Assembly (NCBI GenBank): GCA_019058245.1
Contig: JAHPZJ010000028.1
Coordinates: 234,623-266,678 of the forward strand
Source of the DNA: Promethearchaeota archaeon
GTDB taxonomy: Archaea; Asgardarchaeota; Lokiarchaeia; Sigyniarchaeales; SOKP01
DNA: 32,056 bases
Direction: 5' to 3'
Under the pieces are notes generated by a model, which saw nothing but the letters and a program-made list of their open reading frames with translations, was not told where the DNA came from and did not search any database. The translations under genes and the position numbers were made by a program. Below are positions 1-31,361 of this stretch, piece by piece (positions within the stretch are counted from its first letter, which is position 1; every line of letters starts with the position of its first letter).

Positions 1-63
1 CCTATTGCTGCAAAAGTCGAACCAGAACCTATTGCTGCAAAAGTCGAACCAGAACCTATTGCT
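1..63 (+). repeat. 27-nt coding tandem repeat (PIAAKVEPE), two full copies plus a partial copy; may continue upstream of the window
   Basis: cctattgctgcaaaagtcgaaccagaa at 1-27 and 28-54, then cctattgct at 55-63. Confidence 0.9.
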
Positions 64-405
64 ACGAAACCTGAAGTTATACCAACACCCGAAGTAGAAG
101 AAATTGACTTAATATTGATGATTAAATCAATAGAATCAAAAAATACAACAGAACAAAATCAGATTCTTGGAAAAATCTTTGAAAATTTGAAAATCCAGAT
201 GAAAAAACTTACTGGTGTTAAGATGAGTAAAATTTTGCTAGAACTCAAGGAAACAATTTTAAATAATATTGGATCATCCCTCGCTCTTTTTGATATTTCT
301 AGAAGCGAAGGAGATTTAAGCAAAATCCATGATGTTTTAACACCTGATTTAGTTAGTAAATATGAAGAAAAAATTGATAACTGGGTAAGTAGAATTGTTA
401 AATAA
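1..405 (+). CDS. 3' end of a hypothetical protein (5'-truncated by the window), with a Pro/Glu/Ala-rich repeat linker followed by a helical C-terminal domain
   Basis: Frame 1 is open from base 1 (PIAAKVEPEPIAAKVEPEPIATKPEVIPTPEVEE...) into the listed 115..405 ORF and ends at TAA 403-405. Confidence 0.8.
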   Translation, partial: PIAAKVEPEPIAAKVEPEPIATKPEVIPTPEVEEIDLILMIKSIESKNTTEQNQILGKIFENLKIQMKKLTGVKMSKILLELKETILNNIGSSLALFDISRSEGDLSKIHDVLTPDLVSKYEEKIDNWVSRIVK

Positions 406-410
406 TAGAG

Positions 411-947
411 GTGAAAAAATTGAGTCTAACATTATTTAAGATTGAGGGGAAAGAAGTAACCCCCACAGATGACGATCAATTGGGACAAGATAAAATATAT
501 ATCATTATCGATAAACATGCTAAAAGACCCAAAATTTGGATATGGAGTGGTGAAGAATCGGATATTATGGATCGATATTTTGCGGGAGTTACTGCTACAA
601 AAATAAAATCACAAATGAAGCTATATGGGGCGAGTATCGAAGTTGTTGAAAGTGGGAATGAACCAGAACATTTTCCCCTGCTATCAAAGGATAGTATAAT
701 TGAGCCTGTTAAAGATGCAGAACCTTTTATATTTGAAGAGGAAGTATCCACAACAACAAAAGAAGAAATTCTACAATCCGAAGAAAAGGTAGCAGTTAAA
801 CCTAAGATTACTGAAGCTCCATCAAAAATTGAAGCTGGTGTACAAGATATGGTGTCAAAGGATAAGGTACGATCCTTTTTTGAAGCTATCAATTCGGATT
901 TAGATAGCTTAAAACAGAAAATAAATGAATTTTTATCAAATTTATAA
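411..947 (+). CDS. Single-domain gelsolin-like protein with an acidic linker and a C-terminal amphipathic/coiled-coil helix
   Basis: IYIIID...IWIWSGEES...RYFAG..A..IK...IEVVESGNEPEHF matches the gelsolin-repeat pattern (W-x-G-x-x-S ... V-x-E/S-G-x-E-P-x-x-F); GTG start. Confidence 0.75.
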   Translation: MKKLSLTLFKIEGKEVTPTDDDQLGQDKIYIIIDKHAKRPKIWIWSGEESDIMDRYFAGVTATKIKSQMKLYGASIEVVESGNEPEHFPLLSKDSIIEPVKDAEPFIFEEEVSTTTKEEILQSEEKVAVKPKITEAPSKIEAGVQDMVSKDKVRSFFEAINSDLDSLKQKINEFLSNL

Positions 948-969
948 AATAAAAAATAAAAAGAGATGG

Positions 970-2295
970 ATGAGCAAAATGATAGATGCTGGAGTAAGTA
1001 TAACTACAGAAAAAGATAGCTATTCAGCAGGTAAAAAAGTTGCTAAAGAAGCTTTAGAGAATATGAGTGTAAAACCAAAATTAGCGATATTGGTTATAGA
1101 CGCCCTTTCACGTACGCGTCATAATTATGCGGAAGTTTTAAAAAGCGTAAGGGAAGAACTTGGAGAAGATGTAACATTAATTGGAAGTACTGTTAATGGA
1201 GTTACTGTAAACAGTCGATATGCTTTAAAAAGTGTTGCTATAATGTTACTCGGAGGGGATATATCCCTCGATTCGACCTTTAATTATCCTAAATCTAGAT
1301 TAAACTACGAGAGTATTGCTGAAGATGTTTATCAAAATATTCGTAATGCAGAACCAAATGATCAGCGTTTTATGTTATTATTTCAAGATGGAATTAAATT
1401 CCCACCTGAAGTTGTAGCTAAACAAAAAGCTTTAAATGGTCGAGCGGCAGTTTTATTTGCTGGGTTAATAGCAAGGATATTTAAAAAACAGTTTGAAGAA
1501 TTTAAAGAAAAAGGTCTGGGTTATTCTTCCACCCAAGAATTTCTCGAGGCTTTATATGCCAAAGGATGGGATAAAACAGTTATAGGAAATCTTGCCACCA
1601 ACACACGTAATTGGGATTCGGTAGAATTTTTTAATGATGAAATAGGTGCTGATAATATTATCGGAGCCATATTATCTCCACTGGGCTCTTCAAAGTTTGG
1701 ATTTGGATATGGTGCAGGAGCAGAACCTACAGGAAAAAGATGCAAACCTACTAAAAATATTGGAAATTTCATCTTAAAAATTGATGGAAAACACGCTCTA
1801 CAAGGCTTCTGTGAAGCTGCTGGGATACAGAAAGAGGCACTAAGGGAAATAAAACCCTACGATTATATAAACAGTCATACAATTTTAGGCACTAAAGAAA
1901 AGGTTGGGGACAAAGATATTATACATCTTGTTGCTACAATTACCAACCCAGAGCTTGAAAACTTTCTTATGACGGGATTTCTTTTTGATAGAGTTCCCGA
2001 AGAATTCGAAATATTTCGAAGTAATATGGAAGTAATGCATAAAACTGCTGAACTGACTGTGAAGCAAGCTCTAGAAAACATAGATAATCCTAGATTTTTT
2101 CTCGGATTTGATTGCGCACTTAGGTCTTTTTCATATGGGGATAATCTTCCAAGGATTATAGACACAATTGATAACGCAATAGGCAAGGATATCCCTCGAA
2201 TGATTATTGGATCTGGCGGTGAAATCTTCGGAACTAAGGATATAGATTATTATTGGAATAATTTAACTTTTCTTTCCTTAGTGGGCGGGGATTAA
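970..2295 (+). CDS. FIST (N + C) sensory-domain protein
   Basis: DSYSAGKKVAKEAL, LIGST..G, GFGYGAG.EP.G, ILKIDGKHAL, FDCALR and GGEI fit FIST_N/FIST_C motifs; the start is more likely ATG 970 or 979 than 925. Confidence 0.75.
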   Translation: MSKMIDAGVSITTEKDSYSAGKKVAKEALENMSVKPKLAILVIDALSRTRHNYAEVLKSVREELGEDVTLIGSTVNGVTVNSRYALKSVAIMLLGGDISLDSTFNYPKSRLNYESIAEDVYQNIRNAEPNDQRFMLLFQDGIKFPPEVVAKQKALNGRAAVLFAGLIARIFKKQFEEFKEKGLGYSSTQEFLEALYAKGWDKTVIGNLATNTRNWDSVEFFNDEIGADNIIGAILSPLGSSKFGFGYGAGAEPTGKRCKPTKNIGNFILKIDGKHALQGFCEAAGIQKEALREIKPYDYINSHTILGTKEKVGDKDIIHLVATITNPELENFLMTGFLFDRVPEEFEIFRSNMEVMHKTAELTVKQALENIDNPRFFLGFDCALRSFSYGDNLPRIIDTIDNAIGKDIPRMIIGSGGEIFGTKDIDYYWNNLTFLSLVGGD

Positions 2296-2304
2296 ATTTA
2301 GTTG

Positions 2305-2321
2305 AAAAAAAAAAAAAAAAA
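2305..2321. repeat. A17 homopolymer between the FIST and luxE-like genes
   Basis: 17 consecutive A at 2305-2321. Confidence 0.85.
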
Positions 2322-2392
2322 TCTTACACTTATGAACGGATGTTTTACATAAACAATAAATTAATAAATAGAATAAATATAAGATATTTAAT

Positions 2393-3577
2393 ATGTTAAT
2401 TGACGATTTCATAGATAAAGGGAAAACATATTTATATAAAGAGGATCAAAAAGAAGTGCAAAAAGAGCATTTCAAAGCGGTAATAGAAACTACAATACAT
2501 CAAATTGAAAAATGTGGTCTCTATCGTCAGCTTTGTAAACAAAAAAATTTTGACCCTCGTAGAGACTTAAAATCAGTAGACGATATAAAGAACATACCGT
2601 ACCTAACTTCAGCAAACTTTAAAGGAAAAACGGGAACACCTAAGAAATTTTTATGCGTACCTGAGAGTGACATTCAAGTCTGGCAGTCTTCAAGTGGGAC
2701 ATCTGGAGACCCATCTTTAATTGGTAAAGATCCAATTAATCTTAAAAGATATGTAAAAGTACTTAATTTTGGTTTTGCGGAGGTTTTGAATTTAGACCAT
2801 TTTGACTGGACCTTATATTTCACCCCTCGACCTCAAAAATTTTATACTATAGAAGATAAAATACCTGACCCTATTCCTAGCATGCTTTATGTGTTGATTC
2901 TTACAAACCAAACCCCTATGGAAAATAGATTTTATGCTCTAAAAAGAGCCGATGAAGAAGCAAGAAAAAAAGGAAAAATCTTTGACATTGATAGCGAAGG
3001 AACACTTAATTTCTTAAACTCAAATCCTTCAGAGAAAGGTAAAGGATGGGTAGGTGGTGCTATTCCTCTATTGTATTCATATTTCTCGGAAATGCATAAA
3101 AAAACGGGCCAAACTTTTGAATGTGGTGAAGATTCAGTTGTAGTAGTTGGTGGAGGATGGAAGTCTTTTGCTGGCGAACAGGTCTCACCAGAAAAATTCC
3201 GAGAAGTTATATCTAGATCATTAGGAATACCGCAGAAGAATATCCGAGATTCTTATAATTTCTCTGAAACTGATTGTATGAATCCAGAATGTGAATATCA
3301 TAACAAACATGTCCTACCATGGGAAGATATTATTATTAGGGATGTTGAAACCTTAGAGCCAGTAGAAATGGGGGAAACTGGATTAGTAAATGTAATAAAT
3401 CCCATAGCTTATAGTTATGCGGGTGTGTCAATACTTCAAGACGATATTGCTAAAATTACAATGGAAGATAATTGTCCATGTGGTAGAAGAGGCAAAGTTA
3501 TTGAAATCATTGGCAGAGCTCAAGGTGCTGAAGGAAAGGGATGCGGAGCCCAATTAACTGGAGAAACTGATACTTAA
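2393..3577 (+). CDS. luxE: LuxE-family acyl-protein synthetase (long-chain fatty acid activating, ANL/PaaK-like)
   Basis: SSSGTSG ATP loop, VVVGGGWK, IRDSYNFSE, YAGVSILQDD, CPCGRRG and a C-terminal GRAQGAEGKGC carrying the LuxE acyl-acceptor Cys. Confidence 0.85.
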   Translation: MLIDDFIDKGKTYLYKEDQKEVQKEHFKAVIETTIHQIEKCGLYRQLCKQKNFDPRRDLKSVDDIKNIPYLTSANFKGKTGTPKKFLCVPESDIQVWQSSSGTSGDPSLIGKDPINLKRYVKVLNFGFAEVLNLDHFDWTLYFTPRPQKFYTIEDKIPDPIPSMLYVLILTNQTPMENRFYALKRADEEARKKGKIFDIDSEGTLNFLNSNPSEKGKGWVGGAIPLLYSYFSEMHKKTGQTFECGEDSVVVVGGGWKSFAGEQVSPEKFREVISRSLGIPQKNIRDSYNFSETDCMNPECEYHNKHVLPWEDIIIRDVETLEPVEMGETGLVNVINPIAYSYAGVSILQDDIAKITMEDNCPCGRRGKVIEIIGRAQGAEGKGCGAQLTGETDT

Positions 3578-3637
3578 TAAGTTTATACAGAATTTTTTAA
3601 TTTTTAAAAATTTTTTTTCTTTTATTAGATAATTTCT

Positions 3638-5359
3638 ATGATGGTTTCAATGAAAAAAAAAATAACAATTCCGGCTTTTATTTTTAAACCTGTATACTCA
3701 GAAGAGACTACTACGCAAGTATATAAACGTCAGGATGATATTATAGAAATCGAATTTCCTGTTTTCGACAAGAAAGAAGTACTAAAAACTGCAGAAAGTC
3801 TCTCATTGAAAAAACGAAGAGCTCACGATAGAAATATAGATGATGTTATAGAGGTTATTAATCAACTGGGTGCTTTATGGAGCAATCCGAATTATGAGTA
3901 TCGCAAAGAAGCTTTAGAAATTCTCCCTATAACTTCAGGACAATCCAAGGTACTGTGTGAGCTAGAAATTTCAAATATGCTTTTCTTATTAAATAAAAAA
4001 ACCATCGAAAATCAATTATTCAGTGAACTTGGAGGGAAACAATATTTAGAAGATTGGATTCCTAAAGGAAATGCCAGAATTCATGCTCAACCTAAAGGTT
4101 TAGTTTTCCATAATCTGGCTGGTAATGCCTTTTTAATTGGTGTATTATCTCTTTGTTATGGGTTAGTTACTAAAAATGTTAATTTACTGAAGCTCCCTCA
4201 TGAAGAACCATATGTCCCGATAAAATTTTGTGAATCCATAGCAGATATAGATAAAAAAATTGCAAAAGAAATAGCTGCGCTTTATTGGCGAGGGAGTAGA
4301 GGAGATATCTTTGATGAGTTGTTCAGTTCTGGAAATGTAAATTGTGTTCTTGCTTGGGGAGGGATTGAATCAATTGAAGTAATAAAAAAGAAAGCATATC
4401 ACTATGGAATAAATGTAATTGATCATGGGCCTAAACTCTCTTTTAGTATTATTTCAGAGGACATTTTTCAAGATTTGAACCAAATGCAAGACACAGCGCA
4501 AAAAATCGCTGTAGATGTAGCTATATGGAACCAAAAGGCATGCTTAAGCCCTAGAGTAATTTATATTGTTGAAAAGCCTCGTAAATCGGCAGTTTTTCAA
4601 GTTTTTAAAAGTAATAATATTCAAATTAATTCTCAATCATCTGAGTTTGAAGCAGAAAATAATTCGATTTTTAATAAATTTAATCAATCTCAAAATATTA
4701 GTGAATTTGATGGTTTTGATGTTGCTACTCTTATGCAGCGTTCCATAAAATCACTTAAAAATGAATATTCTGAATTATCTCCATTAGGATTTGCAAAGAT
4801 GTTAGCAGAAGGTTTGAAAAATACAGATAAAACTCTTCCACGCATGCATCTCACTCAGGCTGATGGTCTGGATATGGCAAAAAAACGTGAGTATTTCTTT
4901 ATGAACTATGGTACTAATTCAAGCGCAACCATTATAAACCCCCCTAAGAATAAATTAGATTGGACTGTTGTTTATTTACGTGATCTTCCAAATATGTTAG
5001 AAATCGATATGTGTCAAGATCGGTTTGTAATAGTAACAAGAATTTCGAGCGTTCAAGATTTAATACATTCTATAAGAAAAGAAAGATTGCAAAAATATCT
5101 TCAAACAATCTCAATTTATGGCTCAGATGATTTTGTCAAAAATGTAGCTGAAGAATTTTCGCTTTTAGGAGCTTATAGATTTCCAAGAATTGGGGAACAT
5201 AATATTCAACATATAGGAATGCCATGGGATGGGCATTATATTCTTCAAGATATGATAAAATGGGTTTATATTGGTTATATTTCTCAAGAACATGATGAAA
5301 GTGATGAAGAACAGATTTCCCTAATTAAGCTTTCAAAAAGTCCAAACAATACATTTTAA
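3638..5359 (+). CDS. luxC: LuxC-family acyl-CoA/acyl-protein reductase (ALDH superfamily) with an internal insert of about 65 aa
   Basis: PKGLVFHNLAGN, VLAWGG, HGPKLSF, WNQKACLSP (catalytic Cys), YLQTI and PWDG; the start could be 3638, 3641 or 3650. Confidence 0.85.
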   Translation: MMVSMKKKITIPAFIFKPVYSEETTTQVYKRQDDIIEIEFPVFDKKEVLKTAESLSLKKRRAHDRNIDDVIEVINQLGALWSNPNYEYRKEALEILPITSGQSKVLCELEISNMLFLLNKKTIENQLFSELGGKQYLEDWIPKGNARIHAQPKGLVFHNLAGNAFLIGVLSLCYGLVTKNVNLLKLPHEEPYVPIKFCESIADIDKKIAKEIAALYWRGSRGDIFDELFSSGNVNCVLAWGGIESIEVIKKKAYHYGINVIDHGPKLSFSIISEDIFQDLNQMQDTAQKIAVDVAIWNQKACLSPRVIYIVEKPRKSAVFQVFKSNNIQINSQSSEFEAENNSIFNKFNQSQNISEFDGFDVATLMQRSIKSLKNEYSELSPLGFAKMLAEGLKNTDKTLPRMHLTQADGLDMAKKREYFFMNYGTNSSATIINPPKNKLDWTVVYLRDLPNMLEIDMCQDRFVIVTRISSVQDLIHSIRKERLQKYLQTISIYGSDDFVKNVAEEFSLLGAYRFPRIGEHNIQHIGMPWDGHYILQDMIKWVYIGYISQEHDESDEEQISLIKLSKSPNNTF

Positions 5360-5702: not shown

Positions 5703-7484
5703 TCATATCAATAATATATCTAATTTTTTCATCATACTAAACGTTTTACCTTGTTTTTCGTAAATTGTTATAAGATTTATATTACTCGATTTAGGATTGA
5801 AAATTTCATCATAACGTTTTTGAAACAGCCAATTTAACAAGAACCGTTGGTCTCGTTCTAAAATTTCAGGAATTTTATTACCTTTTTCTTTATTTTCAAA
5901 CTTAATAAATATATCCTGTGGATAATCCAAAAATATGTCTAGATCTGTGATTTTTTCGGATGAAACGTTTTTAATTTGAACAGAAAGTAATAAATAATTC
6001 TCGAGTTTTTCAGGACTAGGAATAATCTTCCATGATTTTAAGAAAAATAGATCAGGTGTTAATGATGGTGCATGTCTTATCAAATCTAATGTGTTATTGA
6101 AAATTTTTACATTTAGCATTTTTTTTTTTAAAAGAGTTTTTAAAATTTCTAAAACTTGATACGTATGTATATGGAATTTATCACTAATCTCATCGAAAGT
6201 AACTGATCCTTTCTTTAGTCTTGAATCTAGCCAAATTTTTAAATTTTGATAACTTAGCTCTGGTATTAATTCACGTAGAAAAATAACCAATTCGTCTCTT
6301 AATTTTTCTAGTTCAGGATTTTCTAATACTTCTTTTTTATTTAAAGCATTATAACAAATTAAATAGATATTATATTGAGGATTTGGTTTTAATATCATCC
6401 TCAATTTTGTATAATTTGACATATTTAAATTTTTCAATATTTCGTCCATTAATTGTGAGAATAATGATTCTACGAATTTTGGATGATCATCATATAATTT
6501 CCTAATCACATTATTAAAAGTAATAATGATTGACTCATTTAAAGGCGTTATAAACATAAATAAACTATAAAATCTTTTAAAGCCATGCTTAACTATTGAG
6601 AATCTTACGAGTTGTTCAATGGCTTCTAGATTGTCTATCTCATCATTTTTTATAAAAGAAAAAAAAGTATCATCAAACAAATCAACATGGTGTTCCAAAA
6701 TTTCCTCGATGATTTTACTCATTGTTTTATTAATTAAAAAATCATCATGGTCTAATAATAAAACTAAGTCCCTTAAAACGGGTATTATTAATTCCTTTTT
6801 TACACATCCTACCTTTCCAATTAAGAATAATATTTTTTCTTGAGCAATCCAATCCTTTTCGGGGAGAGATTTAATCAAATGTTTTACATCTTCAATTGAA
6901 TAAGTTTCTATAAATAATTTTAATAAGAAATCTAGTGCTTCTTTTATAACATCAATATCTTTATCATCAAATAAAATCTCTAATTCTTTATCAAATTCTC
7001 TGAGCAAAATTGGTCTTTCTGAAACAAGTTTATTTAAAAATATTACTATTTTTTTTCTTATTTTCCATAACTCATCATTTAAACATGAAATTAATCCTCT
7101 TACAATTTGTTTTTCATATTTTGGACATTGAATAAAAATACTTATCAAAAAATCTACAAATTTGTTTCTAACAATTGGCTCAAAATCAATTATTTTTGAA
7201 AGGATAAGATCAATCTCATCATCAATTAAGCTCATATCCTTAATAAGAGTGTTTGTATATATATCAATTGCTAGCTCCAGTACATTATCATCATAGAAAT
7301 CTAAAAGTGGTTTTATTTTTTGGAGTTGATTTTTTTTCAAATTATGACCTATTTTTTGTACTTCTAAAATTCCCTCTAAAACGTCAATTAATGATGAAAA
7401 GTTTTCTTCATGAACTAAAGATATTAAATCTTCCAATGCTTTTGAGAAATTTCCAAATCTCATATTTTCTTTTATTGAATCCAA
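5703..7484 (-). CDS. HEAT/ARM-repeat protein with a winged-helix-like segment and a C-terminal beta-sandwich-like domain
   Basis: Repeated L-L-D-D-x-D/W-x-I/V HEAT motifs (CLNDELWKIR, LFDDKDIDVI, LLDHDDFLIN); VTFDEISDKFHI...VLEILKTLLKKKML; beta-rich C-terminus LSVQIKNVSSEKITDLDIFLDYP. Confidence 0.65.
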   Translation of the reverse strand: MDSIKENMRFGNFSKALEDLISLVHEENFSSLIDVLEGILEVQKIGHNLKKNQLQKIKPLLDFYDDNVLELAIDIYTNTLIKDMSLIDDEIDLILSKIIDFEPIVRNKFVDFLISIFIQCPKYEKQIVRGLISCLNDELWKIRKKIVIFLNKLVSERPILLREFDKELEILFDDKDIDVIKEALDFLLKLFIETYSIEDVKHLIKSLPEKDWIAQEKILFLIGKVGCVKKELIIPVLRDLVLLLDHDDFLINKTMSKIIEEILEHHVDLFDDTFFSFIKNDEIDNLEAIEQLVRFSIVKHGFKRFYSLFMFITPLNESIIITFNNVIRKLYDDHPKFVESLFSQLMDEILKNLNMSNYTKLRMILKPNPQYNIYLICYNALNKKEVLENPELEKLRDELVIFLRELIPELSYQNLKIWLDSRLKKGSVTFDEISDKFHIHTYQVLEILKTLLKKKMLNVKIFNNTLDLIRHAPSLTPDLFFLKSWKIIPSPEKLENYLLLSVQIKNVSSEKITDLDIFLDYPQDIFIKFENKEKGNKIPEILERDQRFLLNWLFQKRYDEIFNPKSSNINLITIYEKQGKTFSMMKKLDILLI

Positions 7485-7820: not shown

Positions 7821-9314
7821 TTAATAATACGGAAATCTCTTATTTTCTTCCACTTTTGATTTAACGTGTTTTTTGCACGTACTTTTCTTAGAACCCGCAA
7901 TTCTTTGTAGAAGTGGTAAGCCAGGTTTCACATCTGCTATTGGTTTGGATTCAATTAACTTATTATTAATTAGTTCATTATAAAGCTCTTTACCTTTTTC
8001 AGTTCTAATAAGTACGGTATTCCATCCTGATGGAGACCCTATAGATCCAATTGAAATGTCTGCGGATTCAGAAGTTAAATCATAACATATTTCACAATCT
8101 TCACGAGCTAAATGAGAGATTTCTTTAATAGGCACACTTAATTCTTCTCCTTTATTAGTATAAACAAAGAATTTACCTTTATTGATATCCATTTTTTTAG
8201 CATTATCAATGTCAACATCCAATTTTTCACAAATTTTTAAAAGTGATTCATAAGAAAATGATTCCATGCAAAAAATTCCAATTCTATATTCGATATTATC
8301 TAAGGATGGAAATCCAATATTGTAAATCTTAGATTTGAGAAGTGCTTGCATTTGACATGGTACTCCTACTACAGCAATTTTTTTGCCTTTAAGCTCGCTT
8401 TGGTTAAGAATTTGTAAATTTGGATTATTTACATATTTAGTTCCAGCAGTAGAAACTATACCTTCTTTATTTTTGAGTAAAATTGGTTCTGGACGCCATA
8501 AAGTATTGCTCATTTTCGCGCCTAATGCAAAATCTATTTTATCATTATCAAAAAGATAATATAAGCAAGTACTTGAAATACCTCCATCTTGGCATACATC
8601 TGAAATGTCTTTGATTTTAGTTCTTGCTGAGTAAGCTTCAAGGAAATGTCCCACTTTCGAATATTCTTTGATTTCTGTAGTGTTTTCTTGAGTCATATTT
8701 AATAATCTTTCTGGGAGATATGTCCTAGGGCACACAAAATAGCATAATCCACAACGTATGCATTTATCTTCATCAATTTTTCCGAAACCATTATAAATAT
8801 GAAGACAATTTACCGGACAGATTCCAGCACATAAACCACAACCTGAGCAGACTTTAGAATCAAAAATTACCTTTACAGGTTCATATATTGGTTTTAATTT
8901 TGATATTTCTATATCATTAGGTATAATTAAAAAGTCTTGAAATATGAGTTTTTCTGGAGTATTCTCATCTCCTTCAATTTTTTCATTGATTTCTTCTACA
9001 ATTACAAGCTTTTCATTTTTGAGCAATTCTAAAAAGCTTAAAGTCTTATTTAAATCAATAGCATTATCTTCAGAATATTTGATAAGAGTATTTAGATTAC
9101 TTTCTGAATTTTTTTTTAAAGAATTATATAGGGAATATTTGGATTTTTCTTCATCTAACATAGTAAGAAGAATAGACTCATATTGAGTTTCATCATAAAC
9201 CCCCGCATCTAAAATATCTTTTTTTGCATCAATTAATGCTCGAATTCGATATGAATCTAACGCATCTGCAATATTCTTAAGAAATTCCCATGAGTAATTT
9301 TCTTCAAGGCTCAT
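7821..9314 (-). CDS. F420-binding FrhB/FdhB/FpoF-family subunit fused to a 2x[4Fe-4S] ferredoxin and an N-terminal helical domain
   Basis: CSGCGLCAGICP and CIRCGLCYFVCP; QDGG..S, AGTKY, AVVGVPCQ, IGIFCMESF, CEICYD.TSE.ADISIGSIGSPSGWNTVLIRTEKG. Confidence 0.9.
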   Translation of the reverse strand: MSLEENYSWEFLKNIADALDSYRIRALIDAKKDILDAGVYDETQYESILLTMLDEEKSKYSLYNSLKKNSESNLNTLIKYSEDNAIDLNKTLSFLELLKNEKLVIVEEINEKIEGDENTPEKLIFQDFLIIPNDIEISKLKPIYEPVKVIFDSKVCSGCGLCAGICPVNCLHIYNGFGKIDEDKCIRCGLCYFVCPRTYLPERLLNMTQENTTEIKEYSKVGHFLEAYSARTKIKDISDVCQDGGISSTCLYYLFDNDKIDFALGAKMSNTLWRPEPILLKNKEGIVSTAGTKYVNNPNLQILNQSELKGKKIAVVGVPCQMQALLKSKIYNIGFPSLDNIEYRIGIFCMESFSYESLLKICEKLDVDIDNAKKMDINKGKFFVYTNKGEELSVPIKEISHLAREDCEICYDLTSESADISIGSIGSPSGWNTVLIRTEKGKELYNELINNKLIESKPIADVKPGLPLLQRIAGSKKSTCKKHVKSKVEENKRFPYY

Positions 9315-9859: not shown

Positions 9860-11857
9860 TTATTCTTCAATACTCTCAGTAACTTTTTCCGCATTCTCTA
9901 ACTCACTACTGCTAATACCCTTGATTTCTTGAGAAAATTGCTTATCACGATAATATTTCAAGTCAATCGCTCTTGCTGGACAAGATGATACACATACACC
10001 ACACCCTTTGCATTTTAAATCATCAACTTGTGCAATTTCGTTCTCATTAACTTTTATCGCTTGATAAAAGCATAATTTCTCACATCTATGACATCCCATA
10101 CAAAGATCCTCATCTACTTCGGCAATGATTAATTCTTGTTTTATTGTATCATGAGATAAAATAGTAGATACTTTACTTGCAGCTGCTAAAGCGGAAGATA
10201 CTGAATATGGAATATTTTTTGGTCCAGCAGCACACCCAGCAATGTAAATCCCCATATCTTTTGTTTCTTGTGGGCTTAAACAACCATGAATTTCTGAAAG
10301 GAAACCTGAAGGTCCTTTACTTAGTCCCATTACCTCGACGATTTCTTCTGTTCCCTTAGAAGGAATCATTCCTGTTGATAATACCACTAAATCAGCATTA
10401 ATATTTACAATTTCACCAGTTAAGGATGAATATGCTCTTACTTTTAGTTTATTTGTTTCCTTATCTTCTATTATTTCACCTACTTTACCCCTAATCATTC
10501 TTATACCTGATTCTCTAATTTTTCTATAGTATTCCTCATTTCCTTTGTCCGTAGTTCGAATATCAATATAAAACATAATTACATCCATATCGGGATATTC
10601 TTGCCTGAGTAGCTGAGCGTTCTTAAGAGAAACATTGCAACAAACGAAAGAACAATATGGATTAGCATTAACATCTCTAGAACCTACACATTGAATTATT
10701 ACTACAGTTTTTGGAATTTCTCCATTGGAAACACGATATACATGCCCTCCTGTAGGTCCAATAGGACTTAACATTCGCTCTAATTCTATTTGGGTTATTA
10801 CATCAGGATAATATCCATAGTTATATTCATTAGATTCCCAAATTGGATATTCGTCCCACCCAGTAGCGATAATTACCGCACCGACTTTTATATCAATATA
10901 TTCTGCTTCTTGTTCAAAATCAATTGCCTCAGCTGGACATGTTCGTTCACAAGTTTTGCAATCAATACATACATTTCTATCCATAACGGCTAATTTTGGA
11001 ACTGCTTGAGGAAAGGGAATATATATAGCACCTCTTTCACCAATACCTCTGTCAAACTCACTAGGTACTTTTATTGGGCATTTCGTTGTACATAAACCAC
11101 ATCCAGTACACTTGCTTTCATCAACATATCGAGGATTTTTCCTTATTTTAACATGATAATCACCAGGAATACCACTAAATTCAACAATATCACTATACGT
11201 AAATAAGTTGATGTTAGGATGTTTTGATGCATTTACCATTATAGGTGCTAAAACTCATATGCCACAATCATCTGTTGGATAAATTCGATCTAATTGTGCC
11301 ATTTTTCCACCAATTGTCGCTTCTTTTTCCACTAGATAGACCGGTATTCCTTGATTAGCTAAATCTAAAGCAGCATTCATTCCTGCAATTCCTGCACCCA
11401 CAACTAAGACTGCCCTTTCTACTGGAATTTCTTTTCTGGGTATTATTTCTAACTCTCGAGCACGATTAATTCCTGCTTTAACTAGTCTTATAGCTTTCTC
11501 TGTAGCTTTTTGTTTATCATCCCTATGGACAAAAGAGCAATGTTCTCTTAAATTGACCATCTGAAAATAATATGGACTTAAACCTGCTTCAACTAAAACT
11601 GCTCTATAGGTCGGTTCATGAATTTTTGGTGTACAAGCTGCTACAACTACTCTATTTAAATCTTGTTCCAGAATATCATTTCGGATTATATTTTGTCCTG
11701 GATCGGAACACGTAAAGGAATTCACTTTGGCAATTACTACATTTGGAAGATGCTCAATTGCATCTTTAACTGCATCACAATCAACAGAAGCTTTAATATT
11801 GACTCCTCACTCGCATACATAGACTCCTATTCTAACTGTGGTCTGACTTTCAGACAA
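9860..11857 (-). CDS. hdrA: Selenoprotein heterodisulfide reductase subunit A, 665 aa, Sec17 and Sec201; the ORF track splits it into fragments
   Basis: AGGTGA then TTG 11857; MSESQTTVRIGVYVCE-U-GVNI (TGA 11807-11809, the CHCG position) ... VVGAGIAG ... RIYPTDDCGI-U-VLAPIM (TGA 11255-11257) continues in frame into 9860..11239 with ferredoxin motifs and QCVGSRD..YCSFVCC. Confidence 0.93.
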
Positions 11858-15893: not shown

Positions 15894-16451
15894 TTATTTT
15901 AGTTCATTAAGAATTTGAACAGACAAAAACTCGAAAACTTTATCTACATTTTCATCCAATTTTGCAGAAGTCTCAAAATATTCTACTCCTAATTCCATAA
16001 TCTTCTTTTTGATGATATCTTCATTAATCTTTCTAGGCAAGTCGGTTTTATTTCCAACTATTACATATGGTATGTCTCCACTTAGTTCCTTTAATTTTGA
16101 TATCCAAAAATCTAATTCTTCAAAGGAAGAAAGACTATCCAAGCTAAAAATTACCATAGCTCCAACGGCCTGAACAAAATAATATTCATTGCTAAATAGT
16201 TTATCTTGTTGGCCACCTATATCCCAAAAATAAAGCTTAAAGCCTTTTTGTTTAATATCCTTCTTTAAATTTGAATTTTTTAATACTAATTTATCAATAA
16301 CTTTGCTTAAATCAATTTCTTTAATTAAAAAGTTTGCTCCAATAGTCTGATGGTATTCTTCACTAAACAGATTATCAACATATCGAGCTAATAGGCTAGT
16401 TTTACCAACTCCCGCATCTCCGCAAAGGATTACTTTTCCTCGATAAGACAA
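15894..16451 (-). CDS. Rab-like small GTPase (Ras superfamily) with no C-terminal prenylation motif
   Basis: GDAGVGKTS, TIG, WDIGGQ, GNKTD, ETSAK; TTG start after GGGGGT. Confidence 0.92.
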   Translation of the reverse strand: MSYRGKVILCGDAGVGKTSLLARYVDNLFSEEYHQTIGANFLIKEIDLSKVIDKLVLKNSNLKKDIKQKGFKLYFWDIGGQQDKLFSNEYYFVQAVGAMVIFSLDSLSSFEELDFWISKLKELSGDIPYVIVGNKTDLPRKINEDIIKKKIMELGVEYFETSAKLDENVDKVFEFLSVQILNELK

Positions 16452-30425: not shown

Positions 30426-31361
30426 ATAACAAAAAAAATTGGAGTAATGGGCTTGGATAATGCGGGAAAAACAAGTATCATAACTGTAATAACGCAGCGT
30501 TTTGGTTTTGAAGAAGAAGTAGCTAGATTGACACCTACAAGAAGAATTGCTCGTGATTCTTTTAAATTTTTAGGGATTGAATTTGCTAGGATGGATTTTG
30601 GAGGTCAGAAGCAATATAGGGAAGAATATTTAAAACATCCGGAAAAATATCTAATGGGAACAGATCTGCTTTTCTATGTTATTGATGCTCAGGATTTTAA
30701 TCGTTATATTGAATCTATCGATTATTTAGAGGAGATTCTACTCTTTTTCAAAGAAGAACAAGAATATATCCCAATCTGTATTCTTTTTCATAAATTTGAT
30801 CCTCAACTTGTTGATGATAAAGACATTAATAAGCGGATTCTTACATTGAAGCAGGCTTTAACAAGATATTCGCATGCATTTGATATATTTTTCTTTGAAA
30901 CAACAATTTTCGATATAAAATCTGTTATGGATGCATTTTCAAGTGGATTATCAATGTTATTTGAAAAAATGGAAATGGTGTCTCAATTATTTTCAGAATT
31001 AAGTAAGAACTATAACTCCATTTTGATAGCATTATTTGATGCTAAGGGCATAACTTTAGGGGAATATTATAGACCCCATCTTCATTTGTCGGAGAAATTA
31101 AAGATATATGAAATGTATATTGAATTGCATAAACGGATTGTAAATGAAAATAGGAATCTTTTAGAATTTTCAGATAAATTTGAGAATGGAGAGCGATTTT
31201 CAGGTATAATTGAAGTTCTTAATTTTGGTAATTTGGATTTCTATTTATTATTCATTGTAGAGGAAGATAAGTCAGATTTAGAAAAAACAATCAATATTCT
31301 AGATAAAATCGAAGCTGCGAAACCTCAAATGGAGAATTTAATACTTCAAATTATTCAATAA
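30426..31361 (+). CDS. Rag/Arf-like small GTPase with a C-terminal roadblock/longin-like domain (probable ATA start)
   Basis: KKIGVMGLDNAGKTS, PT, DFGGQ..YR, HKFD, FETTI; C-terminal ILIALFDAKGITLGEY alpha/beta domain. Confidence 0.85.
   Translation: MTKKIGVMGLDNAGKTSIITVITQRFGFEEEVARLTPTRRIARDSFKFLGIEFARMDFGGQKQYREEYLKHPEKYLMGTDLLFYVIDAQDFNRYIESIDYLEEILLFFKEEQEYIPICILFHKFDPQLVDDKDINKRILTLKQALTRYSHAFDIFFFETTIFDIKSVMDAFSSGLSMLFEKMEMVSQLFSELSKNYNSILIALFDAKGITLGEYYRPHLHLSEKLKIYEMYIELHKRIVNENRNLLEFSDKFENGERFSGIIEVLNFGNLDFYLLFIVEEDKSDLEKTINILDKIEAAKPQMENLILQIIQ

Follow-up and report, generated by a model that had tools for sequence, protein, structure and literature searches.

A FIST protein with an FBXO22-type cysteine shares a seven-gene block with a LuxE/LuxC pair and Roadblock proteins in Asgard archaea

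In a 32,056-nucleotide stretch of a Promethearchaeota archaeon genome (the window; assembly GCA_019058245.1, contig JAHPZJ010000028.1, positions 234,623 to 266,678 of the forward strand), three genes on one strand encode a FIST protein, a LuxE-type acyl-protein synthetase and a LuxC-type acyl-thioester reductase. We found that they belong to a block of seven genes, namely two Roadblock genes (Rbl1 and Rbl2), a gelsolin-domain gene, FIST, LuxE, LuxC and an ARM/HEAT gene, and that the block looks more like a chemical-signalling unit than a lipid pathway. In our estimate the chances are about even that LuxE and LuxC make an aldehyde that is bound by FIST, with the Roadblock pair downstream. An earlier note on this DNA, made from the sequence alone, had drawn a three-gene unit starting at position 970. 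Its three co-oriented genes stand, as judged from open reading frame (ORF) calls and Pfam, but the FIST gene really starts 9 nt later, at 979, and the unit is larger, with two Roadblock/LC7 genes, the gelsolin-domain gene and the ARM/HEAT gene added in orthologous loci. The longest FIST ORF begins at 925, so that the ORFs of the three genes cover 925-5359 and the genes themselves 979-5359; the ATG at 979 was taken as the true start from the orthologues and from a database copy of the protein (438 aa). The gaps are 31 nt between the gelsolin-domain gene and FIST, 97 nt between FIST and LuxE, and 60 nt between LuxE and LuxC, and the window is AT-rich (~24-35% GC).

Both enzymes score well above the Pfam cut-offs of their families, with 145.8 bits for LuxE (PF04443, cut-off 24.9) and 254.6 bits for LuxC (PF05893, cut-off 21). 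LuxE carries the SSGTSG loop at residues 100-105, Lys257 in a GGGWK motif and Cys384 in the C-terminal GKGCG, and LuxC carries Cys302 in QKACLSP. In phmmer alignments with the LuxC-LuxE complex of Photobacterium phosphoreum (7XC6), LuxE matches chain E (E 9e-24) with Lys257, Arg375 and Cys384 at the positions of Lys238, Arg355 and the acyl-carrying Cys364, and LuxC matches chain A (E 6.6e-29) with Cys302 at the position of the catalytic Cys. The roles of the LuxE adenylation loop, the Lys/Arg pair, the tail Cys and the LuxC Cys are those assigned in the study of that complex (PMC9157457). The tail Cys is present in all 17 LuxE orthologues and the catalytic Cys in all 15 LuxC orthologues. The ATP loop, the GKGCG cysteine and the QKACLSP motif that the earlier note had picked out are therefore all present and aligned with the 7XC6 residues, and the luciferase-independent carboxylate-to-aldehyde module that it had proposed agrees with the intact set of predicted catalytic residues. 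Family membership and these residues partly support LuxE and LuxC as a predicted acid-to-aldehyde pair, with the activity itself being something we infer.

The pair is, by sequence comparison, an Asgard-specific variant of the LuxE/LuxC reductase. The LuxC clade contains only Asgard proteins down to ~36-41% identity, and its nearest relatives outside share at most 32%, so we rejected a recent bacterial origin of LuxC. Many of the distant LuxC relatives are LuxE-LuxC fusion proteins of ~820 aa, and the named ones come from Bacteroidota. The assembly of this genome contains one LuxC gene and one FIST gene; for the LuxE family there were weaker matches besides the LuxE of the locus, in a 436-aa ORF on contig C27 and a stop-containing fragment on contig C8. 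We also observed a hypervariable low-complexity insert of ~60 aa, rich in Asn, Ser and Glu, after the catalytic strand of LuxC (residues ~312-370, window ~4571-4750). It occurs in all FIST-linked LuxC proteins, where the region spans 81-93 residues, and in neither 7XC6 nor a FIST-less Asgard paralogue (L043, described below), where the region has 24 residues. With this insert, the Asgard LuxC is ~90 aa longer than that of 7XC6.

The earlier note had seen no luxA, luxB or luxD in the window, and the Pfam scan bore this out, since none of the window ORFs put to Pfam (most ORFs of at least 100 aa) matched the Bac_luciferase or LuxD families. The same holds for the whole assembly (3.09 Mb in 31 contigs, 76% complete), which contains no luxA or luxB and a sole, marginal match to the LuxD family (19.7 bits). 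The three genes of the Bac_luciferase family in it are found on other contigs, and their best scores are for F420-dependent Mer/LLM oxidoreductases. With no luxAB or luxD in the 76%-complete assembly, a conventional lux system was rejected. The lack of luciferase alone is not notable, because luciferase-less LuxE-LuxC pairs are common in metagenomes.

The FIST protein scores 50.6 bits for FIST_N (PF08495) and 37.2 bits for FIST_C (PF10442), both above the cut-offs, and its AlphaFold model (predicted local distance difference test, pLDDT, 93.6) has a three-fold pseudo-symmetric fold. The best PDB matches of the model are four structures of human FBXO22 (Foldseek E ~1e-7), with a VIA Z score of 20.3 and a root-mean-square deviation of 3.4 Å over 277 aligned residues. 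Next in rank is chorismatase (Z 13.5), and then cyanuric acid hydrolase/barbiturase (Z 11). Cys379, Arg382 and Glu415 are invariant in the FIST clade and are among just eight positions that are at least 90% conserved in 60 diverse FIST proteins (17-47% identity). A profile of these 60 sequences matched FBXO22 (E 6e-5) and placed the Cys of the FxCxxR motif on C326, Arg382 on R329 and the Glu of the GGE motif on E362; the FBXO22 numbering was verified against residues given in the FBXO22-BACH1 paper (Q307, R308, A312, I314, D366 and R367). Direct searches of the PDB sequences with the FIST protein or with a narrow 18-sequence profile missed FBXO22, and the 60-sequence profile alone reached it.

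The C326 of FBXO22 reacts reversibly with alkyl and aryl aldehydes to give a hemithioacetal, and E362 has been proposed to keep this Cys reactive (10.1101/2025.08.29.673087, 10.1101/2023.11.01.564830). Because the invariant Cys/Glu pair of the FIST protein is homologous to C326/E362, FIST more likely receives the aldehyde product than serves as a partner that binds the substrate. Of the ligand- or substrate-binding role that the earlier note had suggested for FIST, we thus keep the ligand part, and binding of the substrate seems less likely than reception of the product, given the FBXO22-type pair. Among other FIST proteins, one of 3138 aa in our representative library (P0169) matches the FIST profile in 22 separate stretches, an unusual repeat architecture.

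In the mechanism that we propose, LuxE would activate a carboxylic acid, whose nature we infer, with ATP and attach it in thioester linkage to the Cys in its flexible C-terminal tail, and the tail would hand the acyl group to Cys302 of LuxC, where reduction with NAD(P)H would yield a free aldehyde. FIST would capture the aldehyde reversibly at Cys379, activated by Glu415, as a hemithioacetal, by the chemistry of FBXO22 C326/E362. The liganded FIST might then work by way of the Roadblock pair inherited with it, and in the majority of lineages the gelsolin-domain and ARM/HEAT proteins would take part as well. The aldehyde would thus serve as a signal or cofactor that the cell makes for itself and would be no precursor for bulk lipids.

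It could also be that FIST is itself an enzyme or acyl carrier of the pathway, with Cys379 and Glu415 as nucleophile and base. It might, for instance, feed LuxE as a LuxD-like thioesterase or acyltransferase, take over on its Cys the acyl group carried by the LuxE tail, or convert the aldehyde. The structural relatives that come after FBXO22 are enzymes of the same three-fold repeated fold, aldehyde dehydrogenases likewise use a Cys and a Glu for catalysis (review PMC12041015), and the FIST gene lies directly before LuxE in an operon with no LuxD present. However, no FIST protein is described as an enzyme in the literature examined, and the dyad is kept in FIST proteins encoded in rows of KaiC, Roadblock-like and transporter genes with no acyl enzymes nearby. 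Moreover, the LuxE tail Cys and the LuxC Cys are both kept, so that the known direct relay needs no third carrier. We therefore consider an enzymatic FIST unlikely and a FIST that receives the aldehyde the better reading of the dyad.

The association of FIST with the enzyme pair was then followed across genomes. In the species-representative loci, wherever the contig runs past FIST, LuxE is next and LuxC follows where the sequence reaches it, the sole exception being the permuted locus L047. Metagenome contigs found through the LuxE tail motif gave 10 clade members, and in all seven that have upstream sequence a FIST gene precedes LuxE. Conservation of the FIST linkage, which the earlier note had named as a check, was thus seen at every orthologous locus with enough sequence. 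As a general trait of LuxE/LuxC it was rejected, since ~38 LuxE-LuxC loci farther removed from the clade, all sharing the KGCG tail, showed no FIST gene within flanks of up to 6 kb. The linkage is clade-specific and, inside the clade, strict.

Gene presence gives the same picture. A FIST orthologue occurs in 21 of the 400 Asgard genomes, and in 20 of the 21 the LuxC orthologue is present too; the one genome without it is 68% complete and has its FIST gene at the edge of a contig. Only two of the 400 have LuxC without FIST (G123, with a decayed copy, and G026, with a paralogue), and neither orthologue was detected in the remaining genomes. The G123 locus (L042, G123:C79), from another Asgard family, has a 50%-identical LuxC split into two ORFs, an N-terminally truncated LuxE and no adjacent FIST, and is a decayed copy or possibly an assembly error. 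The homologues come from metagenome-assembled genomes (MAGs) labelled Promethearchaeota or Lokiarchaeota, with a few Thor- and Heimdallarchaeota (FIST 48-73%, LuxC 41-83% identity), in keeping with the archaeal host that the earlier note had named. The spread is patchy: the block is present in several genera of the same family, LuxC and FIST orthologues were found in none of the 53 other genomes (species) sampled from the same genus, and the block was found in none of 42 species of a neighbouring genus.

Nearly all loci come from one Asgard class, and shared ancestry could have preserved LuxE/LuxC and FIST/Roadblock as mere neighbours with no common function. We regard this as quite improbable, because the order has been reshuffled at least twice with the same genes still together. 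At L041, which belongs to another family (FIST 37%, LuxC 35% identity), a short HEAT-like gene comes first and FIST-LuxE-LuxC-Rbl1-Rbl2 follow, and at L047 the order is LuxC, ARM/HEAT, Rbl1, Rbl2, gelsolin and FIST, all on one strand. The matching presence of FIST and LuxC in 20 of 21 genomes over a patchy distribution and the constant absence of FIST from the more distant LuxE-LuxC pairs also argue against it, as does the history of the block in the present genome, which it entered as seven genes in one piece.

This history could be read from the flanks. In five loci of the same genus, the ribosomal-protein genes are followed directly by frhB, hdrA and serS, with no insert. Here, the ribosomal-protein genes are followed by a remnant of the frhB 3' end, the seven genes and a full-length frhB. 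The remnant (176 aa, L040:2701-3231), at the left edge of the insert, shares 88.6% protein and 87% DNA identity with the full frhB. The ~9.2 kb between the two frhB 3'-end copies hold exactly the seven genes, and a remnant on the left with a full copy on the right implies that the insertion duplicated or recombined within frhB. The SerRS encoded 7 kb away shares 75-84% identity with its same-genus counterparts, if one outlier at 39% is set aside, and 69-74% with those of genus g15. Compared with one g15 genome, FIST is 91% and LuxE 88% identical, whereas LuxC is only 73% identical. In the comparison with L016 and proteins P0052-P0056, the LuxC is 82-83% identical to those of other MAGs whose FIST is 63% identical. 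The nearest relatives of LuxC thus differ from those of FIST and LuxE, making the cassette a mosaic, which suggests recombination inside the operon. These comparisons show transfer and recombination among Loki lineages, with the seven genes acquired as one piece, and their joint insertion marks them as a functional unit.

The other members of the block are small regulatory folds and a repeat protein. In the Pfam family Robl_LC7 (PF03259, cut-off 23 bits), the Rbl1 orthologue of L041 scores 26.9 bits and that of L020 16.4 bits. Rbl1 and the N-terminal domain of Rbl2 are paralogous (hhalign probability 90.5%, E 1.3e-6); this tie comes through profile comparison only, and the window itself holds just the 3' end of Rbl2. 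A query of the ESM Atlas with Rbl2 returned nothing. The gelsolin-domain protein is a marginal match to PF00626 (23.4 bits, cut-off 21; 24.4 bits for the L020 orthologue). Its gene sits between Rbl2 and FIST in most loci, and no homologue was found in the L029/L014 or L041 loci, so it is dispensable, though frequent. The ARM/HEAT gene (~600 aa) adjoins LuxC on the opposite strand in all Loki loci with enough sequence and is inverted yet still linked in L047. A search for it in 25 same-genus genomes, which are likewise without the block, gave no hit. The model of its product (pLDDT 87) matches generic ARM/HEAT repeat proteins (Z 14-16), and an adaptin, PCI or karyopherin identity cannot be claimed from such matches.

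The presence of these partners raises the question of whether LuxE acylates one of them. The acyl group could pass to a partner protein, such as the FIST Cys, a Roadblock protein or the gelsolin-domain protein, as a lipid anchor that LuxC would remove or edit. In eukaryotes, such partner proteins are lipid-anchored to membranes in the Ragulator complex. LuxE chemistry does yield an acyl-Cys protein thioester (PMC9157457), but in every case there is next to it a LuxC whose catalytic Cys is intact, pointing to reduction as the fate of the acyl group, and we find protein acylation very improbable. Apart from the block, we noticed that two loci of two other Asgard families (L099:7241-11210 and L100:6544-10897) encode, in a row, a KaiC-like ATPase, a small protein, FIST and an MFS transporter. 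The small protein matches the Rbl2 profile weakly in L099 (E 2.6e-5) and has no assignment in L100. These two loci fit a putative older FIST/Roadblock signalling pair, the neighbouring slot of which would hold a transporter or, in the clade of the block, ligand-making enzymes.

Besides a signal molecule, the earlier note had named lipid and redox roles for the aldehyde pathway. In such a bulk pathway, LuxE and LuxC would supply fatty aldehydes or alcohols for ether lipids or waxes or as an electron sink, and FIST would only regulate or bind the substrate. LuxE and LuxC of luminous bacteria act on C14 fatty acids (PMC9157457), and a lipid role is plausible for some Asgard pairs in view of L043 (G026:C133:76000-92000). 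At this locus, a FIST-less paralogous LuxE-LuxC pair (30-35% identity) is accompanied by a short-chain dehydrogenase, two B12-binding radical-SAM enzymes, a CDP-alcohol phosphatidyltransferase, a family-2 glycosyltransferase and a U32 peptidase. Such a cluster may form a pathway for lipids or head groups. However, this cluster is without FIST, and no FIST family match was found in that genome (66% complete). In contrast, the FIST-linked block contains no aldehyde- or alcohol-processing, acyltransferase or lipid-assembly gene at any locus, which leaves the lipid, ether-lipid and electron-sink readings unsupported, and its patchy occurrence, in 21 of the 400 Asgard genomes with no case among the 53 others of the genus, fits an accessory function better than membrane synthesis. 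Bulk metabolism is therefore doubtful for the FIST-linked pair.

Several points weigh against the proposal that FIST receives an aldehyde made by LuxE and LuxC. The two enzymes score much lower than the NCBIfam equivalog cut-offs (LuxE, 113 vs 550 bits for NF052244; LuxC, 142.5 vs 750 bits for NF052251) and are accordingly family members, not lux orthologues or equivalogs. The C-terminal half of LuxC aligns poorly with 7XC6: as to the C-terminal oligomerisation element, which closes the long hydrophobic acyl cleft, there was just one weak second stretch of alignment (query 505-543, 0.8 bits). With this divergence and the low-complexity insert, the substrate, and even the activity, could differ. 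The Cys/Glu pair is general to FIST proteins, including those that are unlinked to LuxE/LuxC, which argues for a common FIST chemistry, not for specific binding of the LuxE/LuxC product. The aldehyde reactivity of FBXO22 was found with synthetic degraders, and the parts of the reports used here name no natural ligand. The block lacks a GTPase or other obvious output gene. Finally, most loci belong to one archaeal class and are not independent, so that the independent support consists of two rearrangements and one transfer.

The system can be set against several known ones. Like the LuxC-LuxE complex of P. phosphoreum (7XC6; PMC9157457), it combines an adenylating enzyme (SSGTSG, Lys/Arg, KGC tail Cys) with a single-Cys reductase of the aldehyde dehydrogenase fold, and it differs in having no luxA/B, luxD or luxG, in its low identity to 7XC6 and in its link to FIST. 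With human FBXO22 (8UA6, 8S7D), the FIST protein shares the fold of three FIST subdomains and the FxCxxR and GGE motifs at 15-17% identity; it is a stand-alone protein of 438 aa without an F-box or ubiquitin-ligase context, and covalent, reversible aldehyde binding is known for human FBXO22 only. Like the prokaryotic FIST sensory domain, it has both Pfam domains and, as is usual in the family, no enzymatic annotation, whereas it has no fused output domain and its neighbours are a predicted aldehyde-forming pair. The original FIST paper and the Pfam description are said to have proposed amino-acid-like ligands from gene neighbourhoods. The small proteins of the block carry the folds of Roadblock/LC7 (MglB-type) regulators and Asgard mini-gelsolins, with the difference that the block has no GTPase gene.

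The published Asgard Roadblock and gelsolin literature that was searched makes no mention of FIST or LuxE/LuxC, and the system is not described in the literature found on LuxE/LuxC with FIST or archaea, on FIST with Roadblock or Asgard, or on FIST with archaea and aldehyde. The fixed association of LuxE/LuxC with a FIST protein carrying the FBXO22-type dyad and with Roadblock and gelsolin-type proteins is thus undescribed and is experimentally tractable. These genes are at present labelled only as "acyl-CoA reductase", "hypothetical protein" and "FIST N-terminal domain-containing protein", and their annotation gains from the finding that an Asgard-specific LuxE/LuxC clade moves between lineages within a fixed seven-gene unit. 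If the aldehyde reading is true, FIST domains, whose ligands have been elusive since the family was defined, would have a concrete and testable class of ligand with its makers encoded next door, and in the prokaryotes most closely related to eukaryotes a self-made small molecule would be tied to proteins of the Roadblock and gelsolin types. It would also bear on why FBXO22, the only human FIST protein, has an aldehyde-reactive Cys that drug designers now exploit. A broader version, which we put forward tentatively and hold with little confidence, is that the endogenous LuxE/LuxC aldehyde is a dedicated signal, read covalently by the FIST Cys and passed to the Roadblock regulators and the Asgard actin system, and that the reactivity of FBXO22 C326 is ancestral to FIST sensors and not a pharmacological accident, in which case FBXO22 would be expected to have a natural aldehyde ligand.

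Table 1 Positions of the block members and of the frhB gene to their right (window coordinates unless L040 is given)
Feature	Position	Strand	Basis or remark
Rbl1 (first Roadblock gene)	L040:3559-3978		upstream of window
Rbl2, 3' part	1..405	+	ORF runs off window start; C-terminal part of ~320-aa protein in orthologous loci
Gelsolin-domain protein, 178 aa	411..947	+	Pfam Gelsolin (PF00626)
Stand-alone FIST protein, 438 aa; Cys379 codon 2113-2115, Glu415 codon 2221-2223	979..2295	+	Pfam FIST_N + FIST_C
LuxE-type acyl-protein synthetase, 394 aa; SSGTSG 2690-2707, Lys257 3161, Arg375 3515, Cys384 3542-3544	2393..3577	+	Pfam LuxE
LuxC-type acyl-thioester reductase, 573 aa; catalytic Cys302 codon 4541-4543	3638..5359	+	Pfam LuxC
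ARM/HEAT alpha-solenoid + winged-helix + beta-sandwich protein, 593 aa; seventh block member	5703..7484	-	linkage + model
Full-length frhB; right boundary of insertion, outside system	7821..9314	-	comparison with same-genus loci

The Rbl2 gene (window 1-405 and L040:3950-4720) has its start at L040:3950, upstream of the window. Directly ahead of the first window base, its assembled sequence is broken by a run of N, and this gap falls in a repeated PIAAKVEPE-type linker. Farther along the window, outside the conserved block, are genes for a Ras/Roc-family small GTPase (15894-16451) and a RagA/Gtr1-like GTPase (30447-31361). An HdrA-like gene on the minus strand (9860-11725) consists of two adjacent ORFs, of 459 aa and 156 aa, with an in-frame stop between them, and the same split occurs in genomes of the same genus.

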